Below, piece after piece: positions 16,681 to 32,085 of a stretch of 64,000 bases of DNA. The stretch comes from an uncultured Pseudomonadota bacterium (GTDB taxonomy: Bacteria; Pseudomonadota; Alphaproteobacteria; Rs-D84), in the NCBI GenBank assembly GCA_902771695.1, contig CACXXP010000003.1, positions 2,640-66,639 of the forward strand, written 5' to 3'. A program made the position numbers and the translations under genes. Positions within the stretch are counted from its first letter, which is position 1; each line of letters begins with the position of its first letter. The notes under the pieces were generated by a model, which worked only from the letters and a program-made list of their open reading frames with translations, was not told the origin of the DNA and ran no database searches.

Positions 16681-17100
16681 ATGCTGTCGGGAATACGTGT
16701 TTTTTCATCTGATGATTGTTGGATGCATATTGTGTCCGACTTGAATGCAACGTTGGTGGATGATGTAAGGTTTGCTGATGTAAACCTGGATTCGTTGAAT
16801 CTGCGCCTGCCGATTTCGCCAATTGAATTGAAAATGGCGATAATTGCTGCATCAGATGGTGACAATATTATAAAACAGGTTTTCGGAAAACACGTTGAAT
16901 TGTCGCCACTGCAAACACAAATTGTGACCAAACTTTATCAAAGTGGTGGTATGACCACCGAAGAATTGAAAATATCACTTGGGTATGCAGAAACGGCAAA
17001 AACCCACACCGTAGAAACGGCTGTTTACAGTTTGAGAAAATTGTTCGGACATGATTTTATAATTAACGATAACGGAATATTCAGAATTGGCGGGTTATAA
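16681..17100 (+). CDS. OmpR/PhoB-type winged-helix DNA-binding protein without a recognisable receiver domain
   Basis: C-terminal LSPLQTQIVTKLY..MTTEELKISLGY......HTVETAVYSLRKLFG...I.....IFRIGG resembles Trans_reg_C. Confidence 0.55.
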   Translation: MLSGIRVFSSDDCWMHIVSDLNATLVDDVRFADVNLDSLNLRLPISPIELKMAIIAASDGDNIIKQVFGKHVELSPLQTQIVTKLYQSGGMTTEELKISLGYAETAKTHTVETAVYSLRKLFGHDFIINDNGIFRIGGL

Positions 17101-17789: not shown

Positions 17790-17818
17790 TTGACTTTTGG
17801 GGCGTTTTGTGATACAAT
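17790..17818 (+). promoter_or_regulatory. Near-consensus sigma70 promoter at the head of the phage-like cluster
   Basis: TTGACT (17790-17795), 17-nt spacer, TACAAT (17813-17818). Confidence 0.6.
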
Positions 17819-17843
17819 ATAATACATCAAAAGGAAGAGTTGT

Positions 17844-17869
17844 GTTCACACGTTTGTGTGAATTTTTTT
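17844..17869 (+). terminator. Intrinsic terminator 1 in the leader of the phage-like cluster
   Basis: TTCACAC-gttt-GTGTGAA followed by T7. Confidence 0.6.
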
Positions 17870-17870
17870 A

Positions 17871-17897
17871 TGCCGCACGTCATGTGCGGTTTTTTCT
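17871..17897 (+). terminator. Intrinsic terminator 2 in the leader of the phage-like cluster
   Basis: CCGCAC-gtcat-GTGCGG followed by T6. Confidence 0.6.
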
Positions 17898-17919
17898 TTG
17901 CCCAAATAAGGAAAAAATA

Positions 17920-18330
17920 ATGCAGATGGAAATACCAGAAACGCAAAACGAAACAATTTGTTTGGCGTATAACGTCGCGCGAATCGTTTATGCCGAAACA
18001 TTGGCTGTGTCATTACGCGTTGTGGAAGCATTAACTTCTATGATTTTTAATGCGGCGCACAAAGATATTCACAATATTGCAAAAATATTACGCGATAAAA
18101 ATATTTTTGAATCATTGAATAACGAATCGGTGCGTCATAAATATTTATTTGTTGATGTGTCCAAACATGATTTCCAAATGTGTTTGCGTGTCGCAATGCG
18201 AATGTTGCACGGCAACTTAGGTGATTCTTGTAATCACGCAACAATGTTTCATCGCGATGAATTATTACCAGATTGGGCGGTTGCGCGCGGATATGTCGCC
18301 GACATAGACGGCATATTATTTTACGCATAA
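17920..18330 (+). CDS. Cell-wall hydrolase (SleB/Hydrolase_2-like), putative endolysin
   Basis: The pattern ARIVYAE...ALTSMIFNA ... ATMFH...PDWA ... GILFY resembles Hydrolase_2. SD AAGGAA. An in-frame GTG at 17842 is an alternative start. Confidence 0.6.
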   Translation: MQMEIPETQNETICLAYNVARIVYAETLAVSLRVVEALTSMIFNAAHKDIHNIAKILRDKNIFESLNNESVRHKYLFVDVSKHDFQMCLRVAMRMLHGNLGDSCNHATMFHRDELLPDWAVARGYVADIDGILFYA

Positions 18331-18346
18331 ATGTACAAGGTGATAT

Positions 18347-18535
18347 ATGAGCAGTTTTATTCATGGTGGATTCTTGGCGAATCGCAAGACACAAATAATG
18401 ACATGTGTTGGAATACTGTCCGCATTGTGTACATATTTGGTTGGCGATTCGGATATATACGCCACAATCCAAGCAATCATTGCGGTGTGCGGAGTTTACC
18501 TGTGGCATAAATCAAATAATAACAAAGGAAAATAA
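18347..18535 (+). CDS. Holin-like small membrane protein
   Basis: 62 aa with two predicted TM helices and a charged C-terminus HKSNNNKGK. It lies directly after the lysin. Confidence 0.5.
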   Translation: MSSFIHGGFLANRKTQIMTCVGILSALCTYLVGDSDIYATIQAIIAVCGVYLWHKSNNNKGK

Positions 18536-18536
18536 A

Positions 18537-19193
18537 ATGGAAAATATACCTGAAAAGTTTCTGAACAAAGATGGAACATTAAACAGTGATGCGTTGATAA
18601 AATCATATTCAGAATTAGAAAAGAAAATGGGAAATATGATTTCTGTGCCAGATGAAAAATCTGACGAAGCAGCGCAAACCCGCTTTCGCCGGGCGATTGG
18701 CGTTCCCGACAGTGCAGACGATTATCCGCATAATGAATTGTTTGATAATGAAAATGTGCGACAAGAATTTTATAAAATTGGTTTAACAGGTGCCCAAGTT
18801 GAAAAAATTTACAACATTGCAGAAGAATTTTTATCACCGATTGTTTCTGAAATAATTTCTGTGCAACAAGAATCAAATGCGATTTCAGAATTGAAAAAAT
18901 TTTTTGGTTCTGATGAAAAAATGCGTGATGCATTTATCGCAATAAAATCATTCGGAGAAAAGTTTTTACCAGCCGATGCATTTAATGAACTGTGCGCTAC
19001 ACCCCAGGGAATACAAGGCATATACAAGATGATGCAATCCATGGAACCAAGTGTTGAAACAAATGTTTCGGATGTACAAAATTTAACAGATACAGATTTA
19101 AGAAATATGATGCGTGATCCAAAATATTGGCGTGATCATGATGAAGAATACATACGAAAAATAGAAAACGGATTTAAAAAATTATATTCATGA
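18537..19193 (+). CDS. Putative capsid scaffolding/assembly protein
   Basis: Acidic, helical 218-aa ORF upstream of the capsid gene, in the T7 gp9 position. SD AAAGGAAA. Confidence 0.5.
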   Translation: MENIPEKFLNKDGTLNSDALIKSYSELEKKMGNMISVPDEKSDEAAQTRFRRAIGVPDSADDYPHNELFDNENVRQEFYKIGLTGAQVEKIYNIAEEFLSPIVSEIISVQQESNAISELKKFFGSDEKMRDAFIAIKSFGEKFLPADAFNELCATPQGIQGIYKMMQSMEPSVETNVSDVQNLTDTDLRNMMRDPKYWRDHDEEYIRKIENGFKKLYS

Positions 19194-19313
19194 TGAATAT
19201 TTTTTATAAAAATTTTACTTTTCTGCTTTACTAATTTTTTTCTTTCGTATAAAATAAAATCAAGAACAAAAAAAATTTGTTCTATCCAAAAACAAATACG
19301 AAAGGAGAGAAGA

Positions 19314-19622
19314 ATGGCATTCACATTCTTGAAACCAGCTGCAAAGAAACCAGCTGCAAAAAAACCAGCTGCTAAAAAGCCAGCTGCAAAGAAACCAGCT
19401 GTTAAAAAGCCAGCTGCAAAGAAACCAGCTGCTAAAAAGCCAGCAGTAAAGAAAGTTGCGGCCAAAAAACCAGTCGCAAAGAAAGTTGTTGCAAAGAAAC
19501 CAGCTGCAAAAAAACCAGCTGCAAAGAAAGTTGCAGCAAAAAAACCGGTTGCAAAAAAAGTTGCAGCAAAAAAGCCGGTTGCTAAAAAAGCTTGCGCAAA
19601 AAAATGTGCAAAGAAAAAATAA
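19314..19622 (+). CDS. Histone H1-like lysine/alanine/proline repeat protein
   Basis: MAFTFLK(PAAKK)n...CAKKCAKKK with strong SD GAAAGGAGAG. Resembles the AlgP, Hc1 and BpH class. Confidence 0.75.
19334..19612 (+). repeat. About 18 tandem 15-nt coding repeats (CCAGCTGCAAAGAAA variants)
   Basis: In-frame pentapeptide P/V-A/V-A-K-K units read directly from the sequence. Confidence 0.9.
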
Positions 19623-19641
19623 TATTGCATGATATTATGAA

Positions 19642-19668
19642 ATGCCCGTAAAATCGGGCATTTTTTTT
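19642..19668 (+). terminator. Intrinsic terminator after the H1-like gene
   Basis: ATGCCCG-taaaat-CGGGCAT followed by T8. Confidence 0.7.
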
Positions 19669-19679
19669 GTAAAAATTTT

Positions 19680-19712
19680 CAGTCAGATGAGTATATCTGA
19701 CTGAATTTTTTT
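19680..19712 (+). terminator. Second intrinsic terminator after the H1-like gene
   Basis: CAGTCAGAT-gagtat-ATCTGACTG followed by aaTTTTTTT. Confidence 0.65.
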
Positions 19713-19845
19713 ATTCAACGGATAATCCATTTTTTGATGGACCCAATTTGATTTGTTGTTGGCGTCATACGACATAACCAAAAATAAATTATTTTGTCGG
19801 CAAATTTTTTGCCTTGGTTTAATCATTTTAACAAAAGGAAAGATA

Positions 19846-20664
19846 ATGTCTGTTTCCATAGATCAAGTTTTTATTAAACAATTTGAAGCAGATGTCCATT
19901 TGGCATATCAGCAAATGGGAACCAAACTGCGTTCTACGATTCGCAGTAAATCTGGGGTTGTGGGTACATCTACAACATTTCAAAAAATTGGTAAAGGCAC
20001 GGCCAGCACAAAATCACGTCATGGTATTGTTCCAGTTATGAATCTGAATCATGCGCCGGTTGAATGCACCTTGCAAGATTATTATGCGGGCGATTGGGTT
20101 GATGCATTGGATGAATTAAAAACCAATATAGATGAACGCCGTGTTGTCGCATCCGCGGGAGCATATGCATTGGGACGCAAAACAGATGAATTAATTGTGT
20201 CCGCTATGAATACTGCAACGGCGTATGTTGGTGATTATTCTACAGGTCTTACCAAAACATTGATTTTAAGCGCATTGGAAAAGTTAAACGAAAAAGATGT
20301 TCCAGATGATGGTCGTAGATTCGGTGTTGTCGGTGTAAAACAATGGAATGAATTGTTGGGTATCACAGAATTTTCTTCGGCAGATTATGTCGGTGAAAAT
20401 TTGCCATTTATCAATGGGGCCGAAGCAAGAAAATGGCTTGGCATCACATGGGTTATGTATAACGATTTGCCATTGTCATCGTCAACACATCGTGATTGCT
20501 TTATCTATCACGCATCCAGCATCGGTCATGCATGTGGTCAAGAAGTCAAAACAGATATCACATGGCATGGTGAACGTGCCGCGCACTTTATCAGCAACAG
20601 CATGTCTCAAGGTGCCGTACTGATAGATGGTGATGGTATTGTGCGTGTTAAATGTGGCGAATAA
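19846..20664 (+). CDS. Major capsid protein, T7 gp10-like
   Basis: By-eye pattern match to T7 gp10 recalled from memory: FIKQFEADVHLAYQQ.., ..DELK.NIDERR..A.A..ALGRK.DE.. and C-terminal CFIYHASSIGHA. SD AAAAGGAAAG. Confidence 0.65.
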   Translation: MSVSIDQVFIKQFEADVHLAYQQMGTKLRSTIRSKSGVVGTSTTFQKIGKGTASTKSRHGIVPVMNLNHAPVECTLQDYYAGDWVDALDELKTNIDERRVVASAGAYALGRKTDELIVSAMNTATAYVGDYSTGLTKTLILSALEKLNEKDVPDDGRRFGVVGVKQWNELLGITEFSSADYVGENLPFINGAEARKWLGITWVMYNDLPLSSSTHRDCFIYHASSIGHACGQEVKTDITWHGERAAHFISNSMSQGAVLIDGDGIVRVKCGE

Positions 20665-20682
20665 AATAAAAGGGGGTAAGCA

Positions 20683-20913
20683 ATGGCTTTTCAGAACAAA
20701 AACTTATCAGTAATTGCATATGCAAATGGTTTTACATTATGGCACTATGCGGCAAATGAAACCTTGGCAACAATAACCGCCAGTGGTTATTTCAATATTG
20801 TTAAAACACTGATGAATACTGGGGATGTTATTATCATCAATGGTTCGGATAAAACGTCCATCAAGAAAATAGCAGTTGGCGATAGTGCAGTTACCACCGC
20901 CGCATTAGATTAA
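20683..20913 (+). CDS. Small phage-cluster protein (possible head decoration or accessory protein)
   Basis: 76-aa ORF with SD AAAGGGGG, immediately after the capsid gene. Confidence 0.45.
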   Translation: MAFQNKNLSVIAYANGFTLWHYAANETLATITASGYFNIVKTLMNTGDVIIINGSDKTSIKKIAVGDSAVTTAALD

Positions 20914-20923
20914 TTGTTAGATT

Positions 20924-20942
20924 GGGCCGGATTTTCCGGCCC
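20924..20942 (+). terminator. Hairpin with a weak U-tract (possible attenuating terminator)
   Basis: GGGCCGG-atttt-CCGGCCC followed by gcatttt. Confidence 0.4.
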
Positions 20943-20973
20943 GCATTTTAATTTTAATAAATAGGAATAAAAA

Positions 20974-21492
20974 ATGCTGACGAAAATAGATTTATGTTCA
21001 ATGGCATTGTTAAAACTTGGCGAGAAACCAATCCAATCTTTATCAGAAGATACGGCGGTCGCAAAATTGGGACGGACATTCATAGATGTTGTCATAGATG
21101 AGCTGTTGGCCATGCATCCATGGCGTTTCGCGTGTCAGTCATATGATTTAAATGCGAATACAGATGGAACATTTGATATACCAACAGATGTGTTGCGAAT
21201 CGTCAAGGTCAATGGCCAGATTATGCAAAATAAAATCATTTCACAAAACGACAAAACAACGATAAACGCCATTGTTCGTGTTCCACCAGAAAATTTTCCA
21301 AGTTATTTCGTAGCGGTTGTTGCAACCAGGTTGGCAATGGAATTTTGTATGCCGATTACTTCAGATCAAACGTTGTTTCGGACTTTGGTGGCATTATATG
21401 AAACAGAATTGCAAAATGCGAAGTTTATAGACAGCACAACATCCATCAATCCACGGATAGAAAATTTTTCTTTGATAGATGTTAGATTCTAA
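20974..21492 (+). CDS. Tail tubular protein A / gatekeeper, T7 gp11-like
   Basis: The N-terminus LCSMALLKLGEKPIQSLSED......HPWRFA parallels the remembered T7 gp11 ILASIGEPPVSTLEGD......GWTFN. 172 aa. Confidence 0.55.
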   Translation: MLTKIDLCSMALLKLGEKPIQSLSEDTAVAKLGRTFIDVVIDELLAMHPWRFACQSYDLNANTDGTFDIPTDVLRIVKVNGQIMQNKIISQNDKTTINAIVRVPPENFPSYFVAVVATRLAMEFCMPITSDQTLFRTLVALYETELQNAKFIDSTTSINPRIENFSLIDVRF

Positions 21493-21498
21493 AGGCAT

Positions 21499-23217
21499 AT
21501 GGGGGAAATTATGGGAAATTTTATTAAAACGCAAACATCGTTTGCCAATGGCGAAGTATCGCCAAATTTTTTTGCAAACTCCGATATACATGGTCTTGCC
21601 TATATGGAAAATATGGATGTTATACCCGGTGGTGGTATAGCGCGGCGTGCGGGGTTAAAATCTGTGGCAACCCTGCAATCCCAGGCAAGATTGGTTTCTT
21701 TTTCTGTATCAGAAAATGAGAATTATATTCTTGCCATTACAAATAACAGTATGCGCATATTTGCGAATGACCAATTGGTTCAAGATATTGTTGTGCCGTG
21801 GGCGGCATCTGATTTGCACCTGTTACAATATGCGCAACGATTTGGAACGATGATTTTTGTGCATCCGGATTACAAACCGCAAACGTTATTGCGCGAAAAT
21901 GGAATATTCAAACTTAAAGAGTTTGTGTTTTCTTATAACAATGCATCAGATAATATAAACATGCCATTTATGCGTTTTGAAGATTCAGAAAATATAACGA
22001 TTGATCTTGAAGCTGTGGCAGATGGCGTAAAATTGACCACTAATCATAACTTTTGGACAGCGGATAATGTTTATGGGCACCTGTCCATGTTGGGAAAAAC
22101 ATTTTTGATTATCCGTTATATAGATGAAAAAAATGTGATTGCAACATGTAATGGGGTATTCACATATCCAAATGCACCATTAAGTGATTGGGCCGAGGCC
22201 GTATTCAGTTATCGTCGTGGTTGGCCAACCAGTATCACATTTCACCAGAATCGTTTGGTTTTTGGCGGTTCTAAATCATGGCCGGGCGGCGTATGGATGT
22301 CATGTGTGGGCCAACATATGAACTTTGATACAGGAACAGGGTTAGATGATGAGGCAATATTTTTCACATTGCTGTCTGGACGCCGTCAACATATATGTAC
22401 ACTAATCAGCAGTGATAATTTACAAATCCTTACATCCGAAGGTGAATGGGCTGTATCAAATAAACCACTGACACCGGAATCTGTTGATGTCAAAATGCAT
22501 ACATCTGTGGGCAGTCCCGCGGACATATATTTGCCGCCACAATCCATAGAAGGTAAAACTATCTTTATATCAAAAAATAAAAAAGATATTCGTGAATTGG
22601 CATTGGATGATTTTGGTCAGAATTATAATGCAAATTGTCTGAGTACGATGTCGGCGCATTTAATAAATTTGCCAATAGATATTGCATATAATAAAAATGA
22701 TAAACGTTTGTTTGTTGTTATGAACGATGGAGATATGGCGGTATTAAATCACGATGAATCCGTCGGAATATCAGCGTGGGGGCGTTATACCACAAACGGT
22801 AAATTTTATTCTGTGGCGGTGTGTAATGGACGTACATTTGTTGTGACCAAACGAAATGATAGTTTCTATCTTGAACGATTTGACAATTCAGAAATGGTTG
22901 ATGCAACAAATAAAAAATATACGGTGCGAGCAATTGGTATGCCTATTATGTCGTCGGGGCATAATGTGCGAAAAATGCAAATCAGAAAAATCGTTGCCAG
23001 ATTGCACAATTCCAAAACGTTATTCATAAACAATTGGCGTGCAGAATTACCAACAGAAATATACGCAGACGGTGCAATTGGATATTCGGGTGATGTATCA
23101 CTGAATACCGTCGGTACATGCCGACCGATTGTTGATGCCCCGTGGGAAATATCAACAACCGATGCAATGCCGATGACGGTTCTTGGGGTAACCATTTACG
23201 GCAGATATCAAATATAA
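21499..23217 (+). CDS. Tail tubular protein B / nozzle, T7 gp12-like (shorter)
   Basis: FANGEVSPNFF......RRAGL and FHQNRLVFGGS....W.S.....NF parallel the remembered T7 gp12 GGISQQP....KRPPL and FFRNRLGFLS....NF. Confidence 0.55.
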   Translation: MGEIMGNFIKTQTSFANGEVSPNFFANSDIHGLAYMENMDVIPGGGIARRAGLKSVATLQSQARLVSFSVSENENYILAITNNSMRIFANDQLVQDIVVPWAASDLHLLQYAQRFGTMIFVHPDYKPQTLLRENGIFKLKEFVFSYNNASDNINMPFMRFEDSENITIDLEAVADGVKLTTNHNFWTADNVYGHLSMLGKTFLIIRYIDEKNVIATCNGVFTYPNAPLSDWAEAVFSYRRGWPTSITFHQNRLVFGGSKSWPGGVWMSCVGQHMNFDTGTGLDDEAIFFTLLSGRRQHICTLISSDNLQILTSEGEWAVSNKPLTPESVDVKMHTSVGSPADIYLPPQSIEGKTIFISKNKKDIRELALDDFGQNYNANCLSTMSAHLINLPIDIAYNKNDKRLFVVMNDGDMAVLNHDESVGISAWGRYTTNGKFYSVAVCNGRTFVVTKRNDSFYLERFDNSEMVDATNKKYTVRAIGMPIMSSGHNVRKMQIRKIVARLHNSKTLFINNWRAELPTEIYADGAIGYSGDVSLNTVGTCRPIVDAPWEISTTDAMPMTVLGVTIYGRYQI

Positions 23218-23236
23218 AAACCAAAGGAGGTAAAAT

Positions 23237-23584
23237 ATGGGACAGATTGTTTCAGATGTATCAAATATATTGGAATATCAAAATGACAAAAAGAACGCGG
23301 CCAAGACCAAAAAGCAAATTTTGGCCGATATCGCAAAAGATGATCAGGAAAAACAAAACTTGGTTAACAAAGTTCTTGCAAAGCAACGTGCAAAATATGG
23401 TGCATCGGGCATGGCAACCAAAGGTCAAACCGAAGATGCGGTATTGGCGCGTATGAAACAAGAAACCGAACAACCGTATGATTCTAAAAAAGCGGCAAAT
23501 ATTAAAAAATTGAAAAATACCAAAACAACAAAAAAGAATCTGTTGCTAACCATGCTTGCACGATTGGACAAATTGGTCGGATAA
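23237..23584 (+). CDS. Small Lys-rich coiled-coil phage-cluster protein (gp13-like or small-terminase position)
   Basis: 115-aa ORF with strong SD AAAGGAGG. No domain recognised. Confidence 0.45.
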   Translation: MGQIVSDVSNILEYQNDKKNAAKTKKQILADIAKDDQEKQNLVNKVLAKQRAKYGASGMATKGQTEDAVLARMKQETEQPYDSKKAANIKKLKNTKTTKKNLLLTMLARLDKLVG

Positions 23585-23588
23585 TGCA

Positions 23589-24182
23589 ATGAGTGTATAT
23601 AATCAGTTCCTGGATTCGTGGAATTCGGTTATCGGTTTCACCGCTCCAGAACATCACCACCAAATGACAGATTTCTTGGTGGGTGTCATGAACGGTGGTT
23701 CGCATCATGGATTGTTGATGGCATTCCGGCATTCTGGAAAATCAACAATAGTCGGAATTTTTGCCGCATGCACATTATTTTTGCATCCAGAAACACGCAT
23801 TTTGATATTATCTGCGGAAACTCATTTGGCCACGCGCATGGTGATGCATATTCGTAATATTTTGGAAAATCATCCGTGGTGCAGTGATTTGATTCCGAAA
23901 AACAAACGTGAATGGGCCGAAAACAAAATAACAATCAACAGGCCTGTTGGAATTCGTGAACCATCAGTGGTATGTCAAGGTGTATACGGAAACATAACTG
24001 GTATGCGCGCAGATTTAATAATATGTGACGATGTAGAGGTCCCGAATACATGCAACACGATGCGAAAACGTTCTGGGTTGCGGGATAAATTGCGTGAATT
24101 AGATTTTATACTGTCACCAAACGGAACGATGATTTACATCGGAACGCCACACACATTGGATACGATATACAGAACCGCTTAA
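23589..24182 (+). CDS. Terminase large subunit, N-terminal ATPase fragment
   Basis: Walker A FRHSGKST and Walker B DLIICDDVE. The ORF ends just after IYIGTPHTLDTIY. Confidence 0.7.
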   Translation: MSVYNQFLDSWNSVIGFTAPEHHHQMTDFLVGVMNGGSHHGLLMAFRHSGKSTIVGIFAACTLFLHPETRILILSAETHLATRMVMHIRNILENHPWCSDLIPKNKREWAENKITINRPVGIREPSVVCQGVYGNITGMRADLIICDDVEVPNTCNTMRKRSGLRDKLRELDFILSPNGTMIYIGTPHTLDTIYRTA

Positions 24183-24841
24183 TCTTGTTCGGAATCAGAT
24201 GATGCAGGTAAAGAACTGGTCAACGCATGCAGACGACGTAATAACTTTGTGCCTTCTTCGCCGAACATTGGCAAATATGTTTCATATTCGGGCATATCAA
24301 CCTGAAGTTGTGCACGTAAACGGTCGTTTATTGGTTTATCTACTACCTCGTTGGCATTCAGCCAGATTTTGTACGCATTCCACATACGTGCAATTTGGGT
24401 GAATTTATCAAACAAATCTGTGTCATTGGCCAATATTGCCTGTACAGACATGACCCAATCTTTACCAAAACTACGAATCACAGGTGTGGCAACAAATTTT
24501 TCAAGACCTTGCTGGTCAGGGGTAAAATCATTAATGGCTGTTATCAATTCGCGCAAATCATGTTCCGAAATTTCTGTGTGCAAAGATTTTTCGGCGAATG
24601 CACCACCATATGGCAATAATTCGCGTGCAATAGAATCGACGGGTGTCTTGCCACTGCGTAAATTATTTATATGTTCAACCAGAAACTTACCTGTGGGCAA
24701 CGCGGCAAGTTCATCAAGAATTTCATCCGTTGATTCAGCAATAAAGATCTTGTTTAACGCCACCCAACCACCTTCTATGACATGTGCTTGGCGGTACAAG
24801 TTTAACAATCTTTGTGCGATAACGCTTGCCTTGGCTTTCAT
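24179..24841 (-). CDS. Hypothetical protein (last gene of the dnaB module)
   Basis: 220-aa ORF. Its stop codon overlaps the terminase-N stop codon (24179-24182). No domain recognised. Confidence 0.55.
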   Translation of the reverse strand: MKAKASVIAQRLLNLYRQAHVIEGGWVALNKIFIAESTDEILDELAALPTGKFLVEHINNLRSGKTPVDSIARELLPYGGAFAEKSLHTEISEHDLRELITAINDFTPDQQGLEKFVATPVIRSFGKDWVMSVQAILANDTDLFDKFTQIARMWNAYKIWLNANEVVDKPINDRLRAQLQVDMPEYETYLPMFGEEGTKLLRRLHALTSSLPASSDSEQD

Positions 24842-24870
24842 CTCGTTTAATCCCCCTTGCTTAAACAGGT

Positions 24871-25881
24871 TTATTCAGACAAAACCATTATAACCTTGTG
24901 CATTGTCTGGGCGGTAATTTTTTCATCGGGCGAAACCATTTGACCATATATTTTGCCCTTGGAATCTTTACGAACAACCGCGATATTGGCCTGGATTGCA
25001 TCATCTGGTTTCAATGCTTTGAAATCTGTATCAATAAACACCGCCAAATCACCGACCGTTGCATTGATTTTAGAATCGGCAAACACGTATGATTTTTCCG
25101 GGATAAAACCGCCAAGACGTTTAGAATTCGGAACAATCGCATAAACACCTTTGCGGCCTTCAAGATTTGCCGGGGCATTAATCATCGTTTTGTCAGATTT
25201 TTTGAACGTAATATTTTTACCTTCGGCGCGTCCGAACACCGGAACCAATTTACGACGGGCGTTTTCATATAATTTGGCACTGTATAAATGTGCCTGGGAA
25301 TCACCGAAATCTGCGGTTGAATCACCGGGTGACAACACGGCTTTGACCCGTTCTTTGACCTTGTTCATTTGTTTGGTCAATTCACCGTTTTTGTATAATT
25401 CGGCAATTTTATCAAACATGCTTTCAACCGAGTGAGCAAAAGAACGCGCAAGTGGTTCAATTTCATTTTGATAAACTTCGCGTTGGCCGACCTCTATTTT
25501 ATGGTACACAGACAAAGTCATGCCGGCATCTTTTGCCGCCTGGGCAATTGTTTTTCCAGATTGTTGGCGAATTTTACGCAGACCGCTGCCGAATAATTTC
25601 AGACCGCTGTCTTCATTATCACTCATACGGCGGGTGATTTCATCCTGCCATTTTGATGCGACTTCGTCGGTATCCTTGATGAATATGTCTGAAAGTTTGC
25701 ACCCAAGTATGTTGCAAATATTCAATAACTGTTTTTGATTTAGGCGACGGACACCCTTTTCAATCTTGGAAACAGCCGACAACGACAAACCAGAACGACG
25801 GGCCAGTTCGGTCATTTTCATCCCTGCACCAAGGCGGATGTTACGAATATTATTTGGAAATATGATTTCTTCTTGGGCCAT
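24871..25881 (-). CDS. Dual-HTH XRE-family regulator with a C-terminal CI/LexA-like beta domain
   Basis: Two HTH_XRE-like segments (IRNIRLGAGMKMTELARRSGLSLSAVSKIEKG; LRKIRQQSGKTIAQAAKDAGMTLSVYHKIEVG). The C-terminus starts VPVFGRAEG, like the linker of S24 repressors. SD AAGGAG. Confidence 0.65.
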   Translation of the reverse strand: MAQEEIIFPNNIRNIRLGAGMKMTELARRSGLSLSAVSKIEKGVRRLNQKQLLNICNILGCKLSDIFIKDTDEVASKWQDEITRRMSDNEDSGLKLFGSGLRKIRQQSGKTIAQAAKDAGMTLSVYHKIEVGQREVYQNEIEPLARSFAHSVESMFDKIAELYKNGELTKQMNKVKERVKAVLSPGDSTADFGDSQAHLYSAKLYENARRKLVPVFGRAEGKNITFKKSDKTMINAPANLEGRKGVYAIVPNSKRLGGFIPEKSYVFADSKINATVGDLAVFIDTDFKALKPDDAIQANIAVVRKDSKGKIYGQMVSPDEKITAQTMHKVIMVLSE

Positions 25882-25903
25882 TTAAAACTCCTTGTATAAA
25901 ATC

Positions 25904-25922
25904 TTGACAAAATGATAGTCAA
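25904..25922. promoter_or_regulatory. Palindromic operator-like site in the regulator's promoter region
   Basis: TTGAC-N9-GTCAA lies between the dnaB stop and the regulator start. Confidence 0.35.
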
Positions 25923-25958
25923 TTTTTAGAAACATGGCAAGAAAATAATTATGCGAAA

Positions 25959-27518
25959 TTACAAATCAATATCATCTGGTATCGCATCAATGTCTATGGG
26001 GGTTGGTGCGCCAGATGATTCATCTGATTCTGGGATTGGCGTATCCACAAATTCAGGAACATGATTCGGCATATCGTCCAGATTATCAAATAAACTGAAT
26101 TCCGCCAAGAATGCCAAATGAATCGTGTCGGTGCGACCGTGACGGTTCTTGCCGATAATAAGGTCTGCCTTACCTTTTGCTTTTTCATAGCGCATTTGCC
26201 ATGAATTTACAGATTTTTCATTGGGTGTATTGGAAATTCTGTGCGATGGGTCACGGTTTTGCAGATAATATTCTTCACGGTATGTAAACAGTACGATGTC
26301 AGCATCTTGTTCAATGGACCCCGAATCACGCAAGTCCGCCAATTGTGGACGTTTATCATCGCGTGATTCAACACTGCGTGACAATTGAGATAACGCAATC
26401 ACAGGCACATTTAATTCTTTGGCCAGCATTTTTAACCCACGTGTAATTTCAGATAATTCTTGAACACGATTGTCTTTGTTTTTACCGCCCGGCGAGGTAA
26501 TAAGTTGCAAATAGTCAATCACAATCAGCGCCAAACCATTATATTTGCGGGCCAACCTGCGTGCACGTGTGCGAATCATCGGCACAGACATCCCCGGCGT
26601 GTCGTCAATAAACAATGGAATACGACTGATTGCATCAGAAAATTGGGTCAGTTTCAGAAAATCTTCATCGGTCAAAGATTTGCCTTCGCGCATCGCGGAT
26701 GCCGGAATACGCGATTGTGACGATAAAACACGTGCCGCCAATTCGGATGCGCCCATTTCCAAACTAAAAAATGCAACGGCACCTGTATATTGTGGATTGG
26801 CGCGTCCAGAATATATGGCGTTCGCCGCATTAAATGCGATATTCATTGCCAATGCGGTTTTACCCATACCTGGACGGCCGGCAATGATAATTAAGTTGGA
26901 TTTATGCATACCACTGATTGCATGATCCAAATCGGTCAGACCTGTTGTCAACCCAGATAAATTACCGTCGGCCTTGTACGCGATTTCGGTTTCCGTCAGT
27001 GCCTCTTTTAATGCATTTGCAATTGGAACAACATCGCGTCCGGTTTCGCCGGTTGTCGCCAAATTAAACAGTTTTTGTTCGGCTTTTTCTATTTGTGCCG
27101 ATACCGGATTGTCCAAATCTTCTACAAATGCGTCATCAGTAATGGATTGCCCCAGATTTATCAAATCGCGACGCAGGGCATTATCATGGACGATTCGCGC
27201 ATATTGTTCAACGTTTACAACGGTCGCACTGGCCCCGGCCAATTGGGTCAAGTAATCAACACCGCCCACAGATTCCAATACACCTTGTTGGTCCAAATAA
27301 TTCTTGATAGTGATTATATCAAACTGGGCCCCGGTTGCGAACAAGCGCATCGCCAGTTTATATATTTCTTGATGGGCGGGGTGCGAAAAATCTTCGGGTC
27401 GCAAGAAATCAGAAATCTTTTCTAATGCGCGGTTGCTGACCAATACCGCCGCCAAAACGGCCTGTTCGGCTTCTATATTCGTTGGTAAAGTTTTGGGAGT
27501 GAAGTCCATGTCTGACAT
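25959..27518 (-). CDS. dnaB: Replicative DNA helicase DnaB
   Basis: N-terminal LPTNIEAEQAVLAAVL, Walker A GRPGMGKTA, DYLQL and the RecA-like core. The true start is taken as MSDMDF (27518), not the 605-aa track ORF. Confidence 0.9.
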   Translation of the reverse strand: MSDMDFTPKTLPTNIEAEQAVLAAVLVSNRALEKISDFLRPEDFSHPAHQEIYKLAMRLFATGAQFDIITIKNYLDQQGVLESVGGVDYLTQLAGASATVVNVEQYARIVHDNALRRDLINLGQSITDDAFVEDLDNPVSAQIEKAEQKLFNLATTGETGRDVVPIANALKEALTETEIAYKADGNLSGLTTGLTDLDHAISGMHKSNLIIIAGRPGMGKTALAMNIAFNAANAIYSGRANPQYTGAVAFFSLEMGASELAARVLSSQSRIPASAMREGKSLTDEDFLKLTQFSDAISRIPLFIDDTPGMSVPMIRTRARRLARKYNGLALIVIDYLQLITSPGGKNKDNRVQELSEITRGLKMLAKELNVPVIALSQLSRSVESRDDKRPQLADLRDSGSIEQDADIVLFTYREEYYLQNRDPSHRISNTPNEKSVNSWQMRYEKAKGKADLIIGKNRHGRTDTIHLAFLAEFSLFDNLDDMPNHVPEFVDTPIPESDESSGAPTPIDIDAIPDDIDL

Positions 27519-28350
27519 AGTATATGAAAAAAATGTTTTTTCAACACCTTTTTTGGCTGGGTATGATGAATTGAAAATACCAATAATTGACAATACCGGA
27601 AATCCAGTTTGGCCGGCGGTTTTCCCAATTGACAAGATAAATAAAATCAAAGAAACCGTTGGTGAACGGCATTTTTTGGCCCAAATGATGTTGGAATATG
27701 TGCCAGATGGACGGGTCAGATTGGACCCCGGAACCATTAAAATGTATGACAATGATTTTGATGGTCGTTCATGCAAAATTGGTGATAATCAAATTACCGG
27801 GGTCGGTGTTTATTGGGACCCGTCCAGTGGACGTAAAAATGCCGATAACAGTGTATGTGTTTTGGTGTATCGTGACGATAAAAATAAAAGGGTCTTTATT
27901 CACGATATTTTGTATATGGTTGTACCAGATGCGGTTGAATACCCGCTGTCTTATCAATGTGATTTGGTATTGGATTTTGTGCGGCGGCACCGTGTGCCCA
28001 GTATTTCCATAGAAACAAATGGTATCGGTGGGGCGTTGCCCGAAATAATGCGAACAATTATTTCCCGCGAAAATCGTGGAATACAAATCCGCCCTGTAAA
28101 TAACAGTCGGAATAAACAAAATCGTATTTTAGATGCGATTGAACCATTATTAAATACAGGGCGTCTGTATGCGCATCGGCGAATAACCCAGACCCCAATA
28201 ATATCAGAAATGTTGGCCTGGACGCCATTTGGTGGTGGTGAACACGATGACGGATTGGATGCAATTGCAGGTGCGATTGCAATGCAACCAATTGCGATAC
28301 ATCCAATTGGTCAAAATGTTTTTACTGCAAATACAAACTTTAATGTTTAA
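27508..28350 (+). CDS. Terminase large subunit, C-terminal nuclease fragment
   Basis: RNaseH-like acidic motifs GVYWDPSSG and EHDDGLDAIAGA. The ATG at 27508 has SD GGGAG 8 nt upstream. Confidence 0.65.
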   Translation: MSDIVYEKNVFSTPFLAGYDELKIPIIDNTGNPVWPAVFPIDKINKIKETVGERHFLAQMMLEYVPDGRVRLDPGTIKMYDNDFDGRSCKIGDNQITGVGVYWDPSSGRKNADNSVCVLVYRDDKNKRVFIHDILYMVVPDAVEYPLSYQCDLVLDFVRRHRVPSISIETNGIGGALPEIMRTIISRENRGIQIRPVNNSRNKQNRILDAIEPLLNTGRLYAHRRITQTPIISEMLAWTPFGGGEHDDGLDAIAGAIAMQPIAIHPIGQNVFTANTNFNV

Positions 28351-28372
28351 CAAAAAAAACAAAGGAATAAAA

Positions 28373-29599
28373 ATGAAATACGATTTACAAAAAATGTATT
28401 CACGTGCAATTGCAATGCGTGAACCATGGATTACCCGTTGGGCCGATGCGCGCAAATATACAATGCCGACCACAAACGAAGATTCGGCGATGCTGTTTGA
28501 TGCAACGGCTGCAGATGCCGCAGATAATTTGGCGGCGTGTATATATTCACTATTAACACCGCCGGAATCATTGTGGTTAACCCTGGTTCCCGAAGGCCCC
28601 GATTCCCCAGATGCGTCTGTGGCAACGGCTGCACTGCGCGCAAATCTGAACGATTCTAATTTTTATACGACGGTTCATCAGTGCTATATGGATTTAGTGA
28701 CATTGGGAACCGCGTGTTTGTTCATGGCCGAAAGTCCGATTGGGACATCCAGTGCATTTTCATTTACGGCGATTCCAATGTCAGATATCGCCATTTTACC
28801 GAATGCAGTATTTCATACGGCATCTGTTTCAATTGCGGATGTTATGGCGCGTTATCCAGAATGGACACCAACACATGAAATCGCCGACAAATTAAAGAAA
28901 GATAATGATTTTTCTGTGCGTTTGGTGCAATCGTTGATTGGTACAGATTTTACTGCATGGTTGGATGTCGGGGGCGATATAGAAAACAATATAGTATCGC
29001 GTGGAACATTTGAAACAAATCCATATTTAATTTTTAGGTGGTCGGTAACATCTGGGGAACAATATGGGGTCGGCCCAATATTGCGTGCATTGCCCGATAT
29101 TAAGACAGCAAACAAGGTCGTTGAATTGGTGTTGAAAAACGCGACCATCGCCGTCAGTGGTATATGGCAGGCCGATGATGACGGGGTTATAAACCTGAAT
29201 AATATAAATTTAACCCCAGGCGCAATAATCCCCAAGGCCGTAGGCAGTACAGGTTTAACCCCACTGGCAACGGGTGCAAATTTTGACGTATCACAAATAA
29301 TATTGAAAGATTTGCGTGACCGCATACGGCACACATTACTTGCAGACCGATTGGGATTATTGTCTGATAAAGAAATGACTGCCACAGAAATTCTTGCACG
29401 CAATGCAGATATGTTGCGTATTTTAGGGGCAACGTACGGGCGTTTGTTGCATGAATTTATACGACCATTGTGTGACCGTGGATTGCAGATATTATCACGT
29501 CGTGGCGTCATAGATAAAGTATCACTGCACAGTGATGCAGAATTGAAATATATTGCACCGATTGCGCAAATGGTGGCAGAGAATAATACTCTGATTTAA
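28373..29599 (+). CDS. Portal (head-to-tail connector) protein, T7 gp8-like
   Basis: The N-terminal pattern AMREPWITRWADARKYTMP....DATAADAADNLAA..YSLLTPPESLW is typical of the gp8-type connector family as remembered. 408 aa, follows the terminase. Confidence 0.6.
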   Translation: MKYDLQKMYSRAIAMREPWITRWADARKYTMPTTNEDSAMLFDATAADAADNLAACIYSLLTPPESLWLTLVPEGPDSPDASVATAALRANLNDSNFYTTVHQCYMDLVTLGTACLFMAESPIGTSSAFSFTAIPMSDIAILPNAVFHTASVSIADVMARYPEWTPTHEIADKLKKDNDFSVRLVQSLIGTDFTAWLDVGGDIENNIVSRGTFETNPYLIFRWSVTSGEQYGVGPILRALPDIKTANKVVELVLKNATIAVSGIWQADDDGVINLNNINLTPGAIIPKAVGSTGLTPLATGANFDVSQIILKDLRDRIRHTLLADRLGLLSDKEMTATEILARNADMLRILGATYGRLLHEFIRPLCDRGLQILSRRGVIDKVSLHSDAELKYIAPIAQMVAENNTLI

Positions 29600-29610
29600 C
29601 GAGGATAAAA

Positions 29611-29817
29611 ATGCGAGATATAGAATTGGCATATGCCAAAACTTTTTCTGGGGAATCGGGTGCGATGGTAATATCGCACCTGCGCAAAATAACCATAGAA
29701 CGTGTGTTGGGACCAAATGCCACCGATGCGGAATTACGCGCAACTGAAGGCGCACGTGCATTGGTTCACCAAATAGAAAGTTTAATATTACGGGGGCGCG
29801 AAAATGCAAAAACATAA
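29611..29817 (+). CDS. Small phage-cluster protein
   Basis: 68-aa ORF with SD GAGGA. It overlaps the next ORF by 14 nt. Confidence 0.45.
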   Translation: MRDIELAYAKTFSGESGAMVISHLRKITIERVLGPNATDAELRATEGARALVHQIESLILRGRENAKT

Positions 29818-30061
29818 TGGAATTGCGGGAATCATTGACACATTACGCAACGGGTGGTTTTTAATAGCGTTTATCGCAGGACTGATTTATTGGGTGGCAC
29901 GTCAAGATAATGCGTTGGTGGAACTGGACAGGTTGACCGTTCGTATGACGACTTTGGAAAATCGCACAACAGTACTGGAAACAGGAATAGGGCAACTGCA
30001 ATTAAAGATAGATGGAATAAAGGAAGATTTAACCCTGATTAAAACGGCCGTTATTAAATAA
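29804..30061 (+). CDS. Small membrane-anchored coiled-coil protein (holin/spanin-like)
   Basis: One TM helix (WFLIAFIAGLIYWV) followed by heptad-like LTVRMTTLENRTTVLETGIGQLQLKIDGI. Confidence 0.45.
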   Translation: MQKHNGIAGIIDTLRNGWFLIAFIAGLIYWVARQDNALVELDRLTVRMTTLENRTTVLETGIGQLQLKIDGIKEDLTLIKTAVIK

Positions 30062-30159
30062 TTTATTGATATTTATTTCTTCGTTTGTCCCCAAAATTCC
30101 CATTGACACATAGTTGCGATTTCCTTCAAAATGTTATTGAGCAACGGAAAGGATACCCC

Positions 30160-32034
30160 ATGAGAAAATACCTTGTTTTAACATCTATATTTGCATTGTC
30201 TGCGTGTGGCGGCGGCGGTGGGTCCGGTGATTTCGGCGGACACGCGGCACACCCGACAACACCGGGCAATCCACCAATTCATATGCAGGGGTTTAGTGGC
30301 GGACAAACAGTACACGCAAATAATGCGACACTTACCAACATGTCTTCGTATACCGTAGATTATGGAACAGATGAAGACACAACCAAACAGGCAATGATTG
30401 ACTATGTTAATACACATCTAGGCAACAGTCGTGGCATTTCCCAAGACCGTTCTGCAACACGTTCTTCATCCATGCGTGCACGTGACGGTGAGGTAGATGC
30501 AGAAGAATTTGCCCGTGCTGATGCGGCGATTACCGAAATGAAACAGGTGCTGTATGACATGGTTGGAAAGCCGAATAATGCCGCATTAAGAACGTATGTC
30601 ACACGGTACAGATATGCCGTGGTTAACGCATTAAAAATGCAAGATGTTGACGTCACAAACGAAACAAGTATTGATGATTTGGTGGCCGCATTTAACACAT
30701 TGAAATCTGACAAGTCATGGACAACCGACAATATAATGGCGAATTTGGATGAATTTGATGCAACCGAGTTTCATATAACAAAATTTAGAATGGAAGACAA
30801 TGTCAAATTGCATGATGCAGGGGACGCAAATGCATATTTTCAATTTGATTTGGATTCCGGTGGCACCATTACCCGTGTAGCGCTGTTTGAAGGTGATGTA
30901 CCAAATGATTATGGTTGGTTTGATAAAAACAATAATCCAAATGGCAATCAGTTTGTAAAAACGACATATGGGTACAGATTTACAATGGGAAATTTGGCAA
31001 CTGATACGCCGGGCTTAACAGACAATCAAATTGCGGCATTTACTTGGTTTAATGGTATTACAGGTAAAGACGACATTACAAATCTGCGTTTTAATAACGA
31101 TGATTCAACACTTACCAATAGTGCCAAAAAGGCGGCCATGATACAAACCATTAATCGGGAATTTAATGACTTTAAACGGGGGCAACATGACCATGAACAC
31201 GATGATGATATCGAACTTGTGCGCGCGCAGTATCTTGCACTTATAAACGCTGCGTTTACAGATTTGGAAGACGATGGTCATGATGTTGTTTTTGGCCAAC
31301 AAGTTACGCCGTTGGATTTGACTGTGACAATGATTGGCGAGGGTAAAAATTTACATCTGCAATATTCTGATTTTGGGTATGCGGATTTAAAGGATGTACA
31401 TGAACAATCTAATGGTACATTCAAAGAAAGTCATACGTATGTTCCGTATGCCGGTGGATACGATGCCCGCATAGTCAATCCAGAGGAAGATGTGACATTT
31501 ACCGGAACTGTGGTTGCGGGTATTCAATGGAGCACCAAAGCCGCAAATGGCGACGAAGATGGTGATGGAATGTTGGTTCGAAATGAAAATGCGCAATTAA
31601 CATTTGATCATACAACGGGAAAGTCGACTTTAGTTATGAATAACCTGGTCAATGACGCTGGTAAGAAATGGTATAATGTCACGGTCAGTGGCGATTTCAG
31701 TGGCGATCGTGCGGCAGATTTAAGGTTCGAATTTGATGATACAGGAAAAACCACTGACGCCGCGTATGATTTTATTTCTAATCCAGAAGATATTTCATTC
31801 GCTGCAGAAGATTGGAATGAAAGTGATAATCTGTTTAAACAAACCAATTCTCTTGATGATACCATCGACTATCGTGGTAATGCGAGGGTAGATTACTATG
31901 GTGACAGCCCCACGTCTGCACCAGGGGAAGTTACCTCCACATTTAGTTTCAGTGAGGAACAACACATAAATGACGGCCATGGCAATGAAGACCATCATGA
32001 GATTGGAATCTATGGTGCATATGGTGGTCATTAG
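30160..32034 (+). CDS. Surface lipoprotein, TbpB/fHbp-style (poly-Gly linker, His-rich patches), putative Slam substrate
   Basis: Lipobox LSACGGGGGSG, His/Asp clusters GQHDHEHDDD and GHGNEDHHE, and C-terminal beta-rich segments ending EIGIYGAYGG as in TbpB-type barrel domains. Confidence 0.5.
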   Translation: MRKYLVLTSIFALSACGGGGGSGDFGGHAAHPTTPGNPPIHMQGFSGGQTVHANNATLTNMSSYTVDYGTDEDTTKQAMIDYVNTHLGNSRGISQDRSATRSSSMRARDGEVDAEEFARADAAITEMKQVLYDMVGKPNNAALRTYVTRYRYAVVNALKMQDVDVTNETSIDDLVAAFNTLKSDKSWTTDNIMANLDEFDATEFHITKFRMEDNVKLHDAGDANAYFQFDLDSGGTITRVALFEGDVPNDYGWFDKNNNPNGNQFVKTTYGYRFTMGNLATDTPGLTDNQIAAFTWFNGITGKDDITNLRFNNDDSTLTNSAKKAAMIQTINREFNDFKRGQHDHEHDDDIELVRAQYLALINAAFTDLEDDGHDVVFGQQVTPLDLTVTMIGEGKNLHLQYSDFGYADLKDVHEQSNGTFKESHTYVPYAGGYDARIVNPEEDVTFTGTVVAGIQWSTKAANGDEDGDGMLVRNENAQLTFDHTTGKSTLVMNNLVNDAGKKWYNVTVSGDFSGDRAADLRFEFDDTGKTTDAAYDFISNPEDISFAAEDWNESDNLFKQTNSLDDTIDYRGNARVDYYGDSPTSAPGEVTSTFSFSEEQHINDGHGNEDHHEIGIYGAYGGH

Positions 32035-32043
32035 GCATATATG

Positions 32044-32076
32044 AATCCGTTAGAATGAACATTCTAACGGATTTTA
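32044..32076 (+). terminator. Hairpin terminator after the lipoprotein gene
   Basis: AATCCGTTAGAATG-aac-ATTCTAACGGATT followed by tt. Confidence 0.5.
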
Positions 32077-32085
32077 TACGTTTTT

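Follow-up and report, generated by a model that had tools for sequence, protein, structure and literature searches.

Conserved podovirus-derived head, neck and lysis genes with a two-gene terminase in Candidatus Enterousia: a candidate gene transfer agent of new ancestry

Are phage structural genes that lie among the core genes of a small alphaproteobacterial genome the remains of a prophage, or do they form a particle system that the host has made its own? The question is raised by a 64-kb stretch of DNA (the window, whose positions are used as numbering throughout) from a rumen Candidatus Enterousia metagenome-assembled genome (MAG) of the order Rs-D84, in which a module of phage-derived genes occupies positions 17790-30061 on the plus strand. 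A previous inspection of the letters and open reading frames (ORFs), here called the sequence-only reading, proposed either a domesticated particle system resembling a gene transfer agent (GTA) or an unusual cryptic prophage. Members of Enterousia, within Rs-D84, have genomes mostly below 1 Mb and are metabolically reliant on partners, and phage genes go unmentioned in the paper describing them (PMC12306168). We assigned gene identities by hidden Markov model (HMM) searches against Pfam, PHROGs and NCBIfam and by matches in the PDB. A scan with one genome per GTDB species returned 464 matching stretches, the best 80 of which, all from rumen or gut MAGs that carry the label Candidatus Enterousia or unclassified Alphaproteobacteria, were fetched and are referred to as the species loci (the window itself matches GCA_017543505.1); counts from fewer than 80 loci are of those reaching far enough to cover the element in question.

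Gene order next to birA is kept in all 80 of the fetched species loci, and the cluster is not strain-specific. A left flank of a methyltransferase gene, orf139 and birA leads into the first part of the module (lysin, holin, scaffold, a lysine-rich ORF, capsid, orf76, gp11, gp12, orf115 and terN); a block on the opposite strand follows (orf220, the gene of an XRE regulator, and dnaB), and the second part (terC, portal, orf68 and orf85) ends at a right flank that varies among loci. The ORFs, which the sequence-only reading had described as intact, are so across the species: 1,132 copies of module and flanking genes contain one internal stop. That stop lies at about residue 65 of the portal of locus L055, where either a sequencing error or a real pseudogene may apply. 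Ratios of nonsynonymous to synonymous substitution (dN/dS, by the Nei-Gojobori method) are rough values, dS being near saturation, yet all are far below 1, and with a range of 0.059-0.23 for every module gene they give no sign of relaxed selection. They are 0.059 for the capsid, orf76 and terN, 0.063 for orf85, 0.069 for the portal, 0.09-0.11 for gp12 and gp11, 0.157 for terC, 0.16 for the scaffold, and 0.20-0.23 for orf115, orf68 and the lysin; the comparison genes birA, methyltransferase and dnaB, at 0.10, 0.14 and 0.064, fall within the same range. The module also co-diverges with its host, in that the pairwise distances computed from capsid, portal and gp12 follow those computed from birA and dnaB (Mantel r = 0.879, 0 of 999 permutations).

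Fixed order, one stop in 1,132 copies, low dN/dS and co-divergence together point to a domesticated module and not to a prophage, and we are highly confident that the locus is a functional module inherited vertically. Of the two earlier proposals, the cryptic prophage is dropped, the cluster being found in every species locus, without att repeats, without a larger prophage around it and without relaxed selection; the domesticated particle module stands on its fixed locus, purifying selection and co-divergence with core genes, a support that does not extend to its GTA-like part. On the latter point we consider it probable that the module is the remnant of a domesticated T7-like (HTVC010P-type) podovirus, most likely still building short-tailed particles that are filled with DNA and leave the cell by lysis, in the manner of a GTA. 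The genes concerned, with the evidence for each, are as follows.

17920..18330, plus strand: SleB/Hydrolase_2-like lysin (weak matches: PF07486 at 7e-4, below the Pfam cut-off; phrog_938 endolysin at 3e-5)
18347..18535, plus strand: holin-like 62-aa protein, two transmembrane (TM) segments and a basic tail (function predicted from the translation)
18537..19193, plus strand: T7 gp9-type scaffold (PF05396, 6.8e-8)
19314..19622, plus strand: lysine-rich histone H1/HC2-like protein with an AKKP repeat, pI 11 (PF07382, 2.2e-17)
19846..20664, plus strand: major capsid protein (PF19821, 9e-72; phrog_3437, 8e-73)
20683..20913, plus strand: orf76, 76-aa head-associated protein (phrog_18004)
20974..21492, plus strand: gp11-like adaptor, tail tubular protein A (phrog_394, 1.8e-34; PF17212, weak)
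21499..23217, plus strand: gp12-like nozzle, tail tubular protein B (phrog_376, 2.7e-84; PF25675, 2.2e-5)
23237..23584, plus strand: orf115, gp14-like internal virion protein (hhalign profile comparison)
23556..24182, plus strand: terN, N-terminal piece of the terminase large subunit, TerL (phrog_38 profile positions 273-460, ~1e-40)
24179..24841, minus strand: orf220, all-helical protein (kept in 77 loci)
24871..25881, minus strand: xre336, regulator with two XRE-type helix-turn-helix domains and a C-terminal domain (PF01381 twice)
25959..27518, minus strand: DnaB, cellular replicative helicase (NF006606, 608.8 bits, cut-off 540; TIGR00665, 515, cut-off 385)
27508..28350, plus strand: terC, C-terminal piece of TerL (phrog_38 positions 468-702, ~1e-40; PF22530, 2.6e-9)
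27517..27544, minus strand: putative dnaB promoter, TTGAAA-16-TACTAT, inside terC codons 4-12
28373..29599, plus strand: T7 gp8-type portal (PF12236, 1.5e-76)
29611..29817, plus strand: orf68, Bbp19-like small phage protein (PF25181, 1.8e-9)
29804..30061, plus strand: orf85, 85 aa, N-terminal TM segment and coiled coil (function presumed)

The sequence-only reading had treated the dnaB block as an insert to be excluded. It is not incidental: in all 76 of the 76 loci covering it, it separates the terminase into two conserved genes. TerN (whose start public gene callers place at 23589) aligns with residues 43-210 of T7 gp19 (PDB 4bij, 8e-23) and contains the Walker A motif (AFRHSGKST), the Walker B motif together with the catalytic Glu (DLIICDDVE), and motif III (IGTPHT), and TerC consists of the ATPase lid region and a T7-type RNase H-like nuclease (PF22530); the Walker A, Walker B and motif III residues and the acidic residues of the nuclease are invariant in 76 orthologues. 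Against the intact TerL of 505-536 aa encoded by phage-like contigs, TerN corresponds to residues 20-214 and TerC to residues 222-488, which indicates a clean cut with nothing lost. With the lid region positioned from known TerL architecture, the cut would fall about 10 residues past motif III, so that the last ~70 residues of the ATPase ride on TerC. The terN stop overlaps that of orf220, and terC has a Shine-Dalgarno (SD) sequence, GGGAG, at 27495-27499. Relatives of TerL in a library of 1.84 billion proteins are mostly intact, at 450-600 aa, and the split is therefore rare; short N-terminal pieces of ~200 aa occur in other alphaproteobacterial MAGs as well.

Excision or inversion of the 3.3-kb block, which might rebuild an intact terminase, was considered and rejected, as no direct or inverted repeats flank the block, no recombinase is encoded in it, and the intervening genes differ in other lineages. 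An intein or intron was also rejected, the profile alignment being continuous (460 to 468) without extra sequence and Rfam finding nothing in the window; an Rfam search of the 335-nt gap between terN and terC in another lineage (L140) likewise gave no match. An AlphaFold2 (AF2) prediction of fused TerN and TerC from a single sequence had a mean confidence (pLDDT) of 35, and the model is meaningless.

DnaB passes the cutoffs of the cellular equivalogs and falls below that of phage_DnaB, and its identification as a phage helicase was rejected. In every locus it starts at the ATG at 27509-27507, which shares CATG with the terC start at 27508-27510. The putative dnaB promoter is conserved, with low third-position entropy in the terC codons that it overlaps, and dnaB has no SD, which suggests that its mRNA is leaderless. 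The XRE regulator has a median identity of 73.5% and a dN/dS of 0.08. As a candidate self-cleaving repressor of the LexA/CI type it was discarded: it has no Peptidase_S24 match and its orthologues carry A, P, V, T or N in place of the candidate Ser, so that with no conserved nucleophile LexA-like self-cleavage is unlikely. No Pfam or NCBIfam family matches orf220, and its AF2 model (pLDDT 80.5) found no match by Foldseek in the PDB or BFVD.

The remaining gene assignments largely agree with the sequence-only reading. The lysin, holin-like protein, scaffold, gp11- and gp12-like proteins, terminase and gp8-like portal that it named are all present at the positions listed above, and the Pfam, PHROGs and PDB matches obtained on searching the ORFs against phage families are overall far beyond chance. 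The lysin is present in 70 loci (median identity 52%, dN/dS 0.23) and the holin-like ORF is kept in 69 of 70. The capsid protein (272 aa) does sit at the gene 10 position, but it is closest to those of HTVC010P-type podophages and not to T7 gp10 itself, to which it had been likened; it is at least 83% identical across the 80 species loci, and the best 120 of its 4,513 homologues are all at least 82% identical. In phage relatives, too, orf76 follows the capsid gene, and an orf68-type gene accompanies the portal. The reported absence of gp14-16 equivalents holds for gp15 and gp16, neither of which was found among the window ORFs, but not for gp14. Profile comparison of orf115 with its positional homologues in loci of a second type, in which ftsZ takes the place of dnaB, gave an hhalign probability of 97% (E 2.5e-11), and one of these homologues matches PF24072 (T7_gp14) at 7.6e-5. 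Direct BLAST of orf115 and orf220 against their positional counterparts in one such locus (L166) was not significant, and profile comparison rescued orf115 only.

The lysine-rich ORF stands between scaffold and capsid in essentially all Enterousia loci and in the ftsZ-type loci L166, L168, L169 and L170; it was not found in that interval in the phage relatives L082 and L086, nor in the virome scaffold MT838907. We infer that its product helps to condense or neutralize DNA. An antisense ORF at 19136-19630 (minus strand, 164 aa, FFA/GFF repeats) is the mirror of the AKKP-repeat gene and almost certainly no gene. The product of orf85 is possibly a lysis accessory; in L140, L166 and L168 the module opens, immediately ahead of the lysin gene, with a gene for a protein that is built like it as judged by eye.

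The edges of the module are those first described, with birA on the left (stop at 17752) and, after the orf85 stop at 30061, a lineage-specific Slam locus on the right, and the start at 17790 coincides with the -35 hexamer of a conserved promoter. A repeat search confirmed that no att repeats bracket the cluster, and its GC content is that of the rest of the window. Of the window ORFs that were scanned, none is an integrase, RNA or DNA polymerase or tail fiber gene, and this is the scope of the absences given here for these genes and for gp15 and gp16; integration, replication and excision functions were found neither among these ORFs nor within 10 kb on either side of the 80 loci. The Slam locus is a local insertion. 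At 30085-33474, between orf85 and a UPF0102 gene, it encodes a 649-aa lipoprotein and a Slam (PF04575) outer-membrane translocator, a pair present only in the close relatives of the window; elsewhere orf85 is often followed directly by UPF0102/orf274.

Among characterized phages, the closest capsids are those of HTVC010P-type podophages (45% identity, Pelagibacter phage EXVC031P) and of Vibrio podophages. The human fecal virome scaffold MT838907 has a capsid 65% identical and the order portal-scaffold-capsid-orf76-gp11-gp12. Matches in IMG/VR form two groups, the first of which consists of Enterousia-type loci with identical split architecture filed as viral genomes; many of the uncultivated viral genomes L088-L131 are chromosomal Enterousia copies, some including birA and dnaB. 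The second group consists of phage-like contigs whose capsids are 57-66% identical; their TerL is intact, and their genes run TerL-lysin-portal-orf68-scaffold-capsid-orf76-gp11-gp12, with ~3.6 kb of additional genes after these. The HTVC010P-type phages, with EXVC031P, together with MT838907 and the IMG/VR contigs L086 and L135, are the closest relatives in capsid, portal, orf76, gp11 and gp12, although gp11 was not detected in EXVC031P. The order in the phage-like contigs is likely to be ancestral; they differ from the module in the intact TerL of 505-536 aa, in the extra genes after gp12 and in falling outside the clade of split-terminase loci.

The ftsZ-type loci comprise L166, L169 and L170, AT-rich MAG contigs of which at least one is from the human gut, and L168, from a MAG named 'Rickettsiales bacterium'. 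They begin with an orf85-like gene, lysin, holin, scaffold, lysine-rich gene, a membrane protein gene, capsid and orf76, and continue with gp11, gp12, a gp14-like gene, a gene similar to the N-terminal part of the T7 fiber, terN, ftsZ (on the same strand), portal, terC and Bbp19. The fiber-like protein has 233-240 aa and was not called in L169; among Enterousia loci, 18 of 77 keep a 182-aa gene of this kind between orf115 and terN, and it has been lost in the lineage of the window. Between terN and ftsZ, two of these loci have 1-1.4 kb that hold only a 50-aa minus-strand ORF in L166 (10613-11658) and no called gene in L170 (10610-12001); in L169 this place is taken by ORFs of 580 and 192 aa without family. 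In L140 and L173 the terminase halves are adjacent yet separate, 270-335 nt apart, and in L174 portal-terC and terN lie several kb apart among host genes. In the dispersed module of L174, host and toxin-antitoxin genes stand between portal-terC, terN and a phage lysozyme gene, a spread over several loci that is reminiscent of the GTA of Rhodobacter capsulatus (RcGTA).

Other lineages keep the halves separate in no fewer than four different arrangements, always with the same cut. In a neighbor-joining capsid tree (100 bootstrap replicates) all split-terminase loci form one clade (89/100), with the intact-TerL contigs L082, L086 and L087 as its sister (100/100) and Enterousia monophyletic inside it (100/100). 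The simplest reading of these sequences is that there was one domestication and one split, after which the halves would have behaved as independent genes through later rearrangements. A further contig, L167, was considered as a member and turned out to be an ordinary degraded prophage.

How such a module might be controlled is suggested by the 167-nt spacer between birA and the lysin gene, in which a promoter, a conserved CATCAA, two hairpins with T runs, an SD and the lysin start are conserved. The regulatory features are listed below.

17790..17818, plus strand: sigma-70 promoter with extended -10, TTGACT-17-TACAAT with TG upstream (nearly invariant in 65 Enterousia loci)
17844-17863 and 17872-17890, plus strand: tandem pair of intrinsic terminators in the 5' leader, both with a T run downstream
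19639-19664 and 19678-19705, plus strand: terminator-like hairpins before the capsid gene (64 of 72 loci have one or more here)
20923..20943, plus strand: terminator-like hairpin after orf76, 9 bp with 7 GC (present in 52 of 80 loci)

In the 65 Enterousia loci the promoter is conserved while its flanks diverge, and leader terminators are present in 64 of 66 loci, with a mean of 1.8 per locus. Across 37 distinct leader sequences, 94.6% of cells in the hairpins pair and 10 of the 13 pairs have changed on both sides; 79 cells are compensatory as against 19.7 +/- 6.6 in shuffles (0 of 500), and the covariation score of 0.50 compares with at most 0.19 in slid controls. The lineages with ftsZ have a similar leader of promoter, hairpin and terminator. 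Terminator-like hairpins are enriched across the region (33 found, 13.4 +/- 3.9 expected), with none at five other junctions and, at a sixth, in 2 of 70 loci. From a promoter that fires into conserved, covarying terminators we infer antitermination control, and the arrangement suggests termination by default with conditional read-through. Late control in phage lambda is built in this way, with the promoter PR' followed by terminators at tR' that Q allows the polymerase to bypass, and the CcGTA cluster of Caulobacter needs antitermination by GafYZ (PMC11150451). Like the module, both have a promoter and then terminators before structural genes, with further terminators inside the cluster; unlike in them, no GafY, GafZ or Q homologue was found for the module, and antitermination is here deduced from conserved sequence and structure only. 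Among candidate regulators, orf220 was examined as an antiterminator and gave no fold or family match, and orf139 shows at most a weak resemblance to an OmpR-type winged helix. A small winged-helix protein of the OmpR type is encoded just upstream of the module both in the window (16681-17100, before birA) and in the human-gut ftsZ-type locus L169 (2280-2786); the two are weakly similar (E = 6e-4), and the protein is a possible regulator.

To our knowledge, every characterized gene transfer agent goes back to a domestication of its own, and the number known is small. Our literature searches found no earlier account of this module, of a T7-type GTA, of a split terminase, of phages or GTAs in Enterousia or Rs-D84, or of ftsZ-portal clusters. 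The nearest precedent is the retention in reduced endosymbionts of RcGTA-like head clusters, under purifying selection and with incomplete tails (PMC9254644). Like the RcGTA-type elements (Rhodogtaviriformidae, and the head-only clusters of Rickettsiales and Holosporaceae), the module is a phage-derived, vertically inherited chromosomal cluster of Alphaproteobacteria under purifying selection, without replication or integration genes, and kept in very small genomes with an incomplete tail. Its ancestry is unrelated: RcGTA head gene families were not matched, the Pfam matches being PF19821, PF12236, PF05396 and PF22530, and in place of the HK97-siphovirus set it has a PF12236 portal, a T7-type scaffold, gp11 and gp12, and a gp19-type terminase. 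It differs further in its two-gene terminase, in the essential host genes inside it, and in being known from genes alone. BaGTA of Bartonella, also an independently domesticated phage module of a host-associated alphaproteobacterium conserved across its genus, is coupled to run-off replication and has a 448-aa terminase and a 621-aa portal (PMC3610622); its terminase, judged by these gene lengths and not by sequence comparison, is intact, and this sets it apart from the module.

With T7 itself the module shares homologues of the portal, scaffold, gp11, gp12, gp14-like protein and TerL (genes 8, 9, 11, 12, 14 and 19); it departs from T7 in its PF19821 capsid, its permuted gene order and its two-gene TerL, and of the traits of the T7-like Autographiviridae no RNA polymerase, gp15, gp16, gp17 or gp18 is found in the window. 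The gp16 of phi29 is a packaging ATPase that works although its chain bears no nuclease domain. It has no nuclease partner at all, however, whereas in the module part of the ATPase, the lid, is on the nuclease-carrying chain. What distinguishes the module is above all its two-gene terminase, the most conserved of these features, and besides it the dnaB or ftsZ embedded in it, an H1-like protein specific to the clade, and a leader with two terminators.

We therefore regard the module as a strong candidate, on the genomic evidence, for a gene transfer agent of new ancestry, and envisage that it would work as follows. The strong sigma-70 promoter would fire into the two-terminator leader, leaving the operon off by default until an antitermination signal allowed RNA polymerase to read from the lysin through terN, with the terminators before the capsid gene and after orf76 setting stoichiometry. 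Scaffold, capsid and portal would form procapsids, and a two-piece terminase would dock on the portal, TerN supplying the ATPase core and TerC the lid region and nuclease. With no recognizable small terminase, it would package whatever DNA was present, by headful; gp11 and gp12 would close the neck, holin and lysin would release the particles, and the DNA would presumably pass to other cells.

Several observations weigh against this view. The module is known from the genes of an uncultured organism alone, not from particles, packaging or transfer. Our literature searches found no characterized natural two-gene TerL and none cut inside the ATPase fold, and the Pfam and PHROGs searches of the module found no recognizable small terminase. 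Searches with Pfam/NCBIfam and Foldseek found no Q, GafY or GafZ homologue, and no antiterminator was identified. For terC-portal-orf68-orf85 the search for a promoter gave none; that transcription of the first operon might continue through the antisense dnaB block as far as terC was considered as an alternative and is not supported, plus-strand terminator-like hairpins lying there in 31 of 76 loci. Neither gp15 nor gp16 nor a receptor-binding fiber is found in the window, with a fiber stub in only 18 of 77 Enterousia loci, and with no ejection proteins or fiber the entry of DNA into a recipient is unexplained. Finally, if the head shares the T=7 symmetry of related phages, it could hold more than the 12-kb cluster. 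A classical criterion for a GTA is that it cannot package itself, and with such a capacity this would not be obviously so.

Some of these same observations fit a different use of a functional module, which we think unlikely though worth keeping in view: that it serves not gene transfer but the sequestering of DNA in heads without delivery, a role in replication or division, or an interaction with partner organisms. The parts for delivery are missing or reduced (no gp15 or gp16, and the fiber stub lost in 59 of 77 loci), essential dnaB or ftsZ, the latter with mipZ alongside, has been embedded repeatedly, and the lysine-rich protein of DNA-binding type is specific to the clade and not found in the phage relatives; the same question has been raised for head-only RcGTA-like clusters in endosymbionts (PMC9254644). 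Such a use sits poorly with a lysin and holin that lead the operon in every lineage, as expected of release by lysis, and with purifying selection on gp11, gp12 and the gp14-like protein, whose retention is understandable only in a particle that opens to eject its DNA.

Less probable still is that capsid and portal are functional while the split terminase no longer packages, giving empty or protein-filled shells comparable to an encapsulin-type compartment. The position of the cut, inside the ATPase fold some 10 residues past motif III, and the failure to find a described natural two-gene TerL would be in keeping with this. However, both halves have invariant catalytic motifs and dN/dS of 0.059 and 0.157, and their retention through several independent rearrangements is hard to explain without an enzymatic function.

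A decaying cryptic prophage that looks intact by chance is very improbable: the replication and integration genes and most of the tail and ejection genes of a full phage were not found in the window, and related, ordinary degraded prophages such as L167 do exist, but decay is contradicted by an order conserved in 80 species, one stop in 1,132 copies, dN/dS well below 1 and co-divergence with host genes, as well as by regulatory RNA structures conserved with compensatory changes. An active temperate phage or phage satellite that integrates repeatedly next to birA, as might be supposed from the many module copies listed as viral genomes in IMG/VR and from genuine phage-like relatives (57-66% capsid identity) in gut viromes, is just as improbable, since neither an integrase nor a replication module nor att repeats were found, essential genes of the host are enclosed in the module, the module tracks host genes, and the phage relatives have an intact TerL, a different gene order and no lysine-rich gene.

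The reading we favor, a domesticated podovirus remnant that still builds GTA-like particles, can be carried further only tentatively. The interlocking of module and host genes (dnaB divergent from terC with start codons sharing CATG, and ftsZ co-oriented between the terminase halves) raises the speculative idea that particle production is mechanically coupled to the shutdown or re-tuning of replication or division, as a programmed, altruistic switch for gene exchange and lysis of a kind previously undescribed. We would put no greater weight on the associated suggestion that the particle system with its two-chain terminase is ancient and a core cellular trait of several lineages of gut Alphaproteobacteria with reduced genomes. 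The repeated embedding of dnaB and ftsZ nonetheless makes a link between particle production and the cell cycle testable.

If it is a GTA derived from a podovirus, the module represents a new lineage among GTAs, in abundant uncultured bacteria of the rumen and human gut. Any 9 kb kept in a genome below 1 Mb has to be of use to its bearer, and exchanging genes could offset decay by mutation. The split TerL offers a ready-made test of whether an ATPase core and a lid-plus-nuclease work as two chains, and the promoter with its double terminators is a handle for finding the regulator. Chromosomal loci of this kind, listed in IMG/VR as viral, may be miscounted as phages in surveys of gut viromes.

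Elsewhere in the window, ORFs identified as cellular include priA and genes for a ComM-like ATPase, a T2SSE-type ATPase, a tRNA methyltransferase and UPF0102, and gap, miaA, bamA, rseP, uppS and frr were assigned by eye only; several of the scanned ORFs had no Pfam match. An ORF of 466 aa at 14533-15933 (minus strand), without Pfam match or homologue in the 80 species loci, is present in contigs of the same species (L083-L085) and is probably a lineage-specific insertion, and a 1,543-aa ORF at 43457-48088 (plus strand) has no Pfam family. The ComM/YifB-type Mg-chelatase-like ATPase, at 49120-50649 (minus strand), is encoded despite the reduced genome; ComM-type proteins aid recombination of incoming DNA, and its presence would be relevant if the particles deliver DNA.

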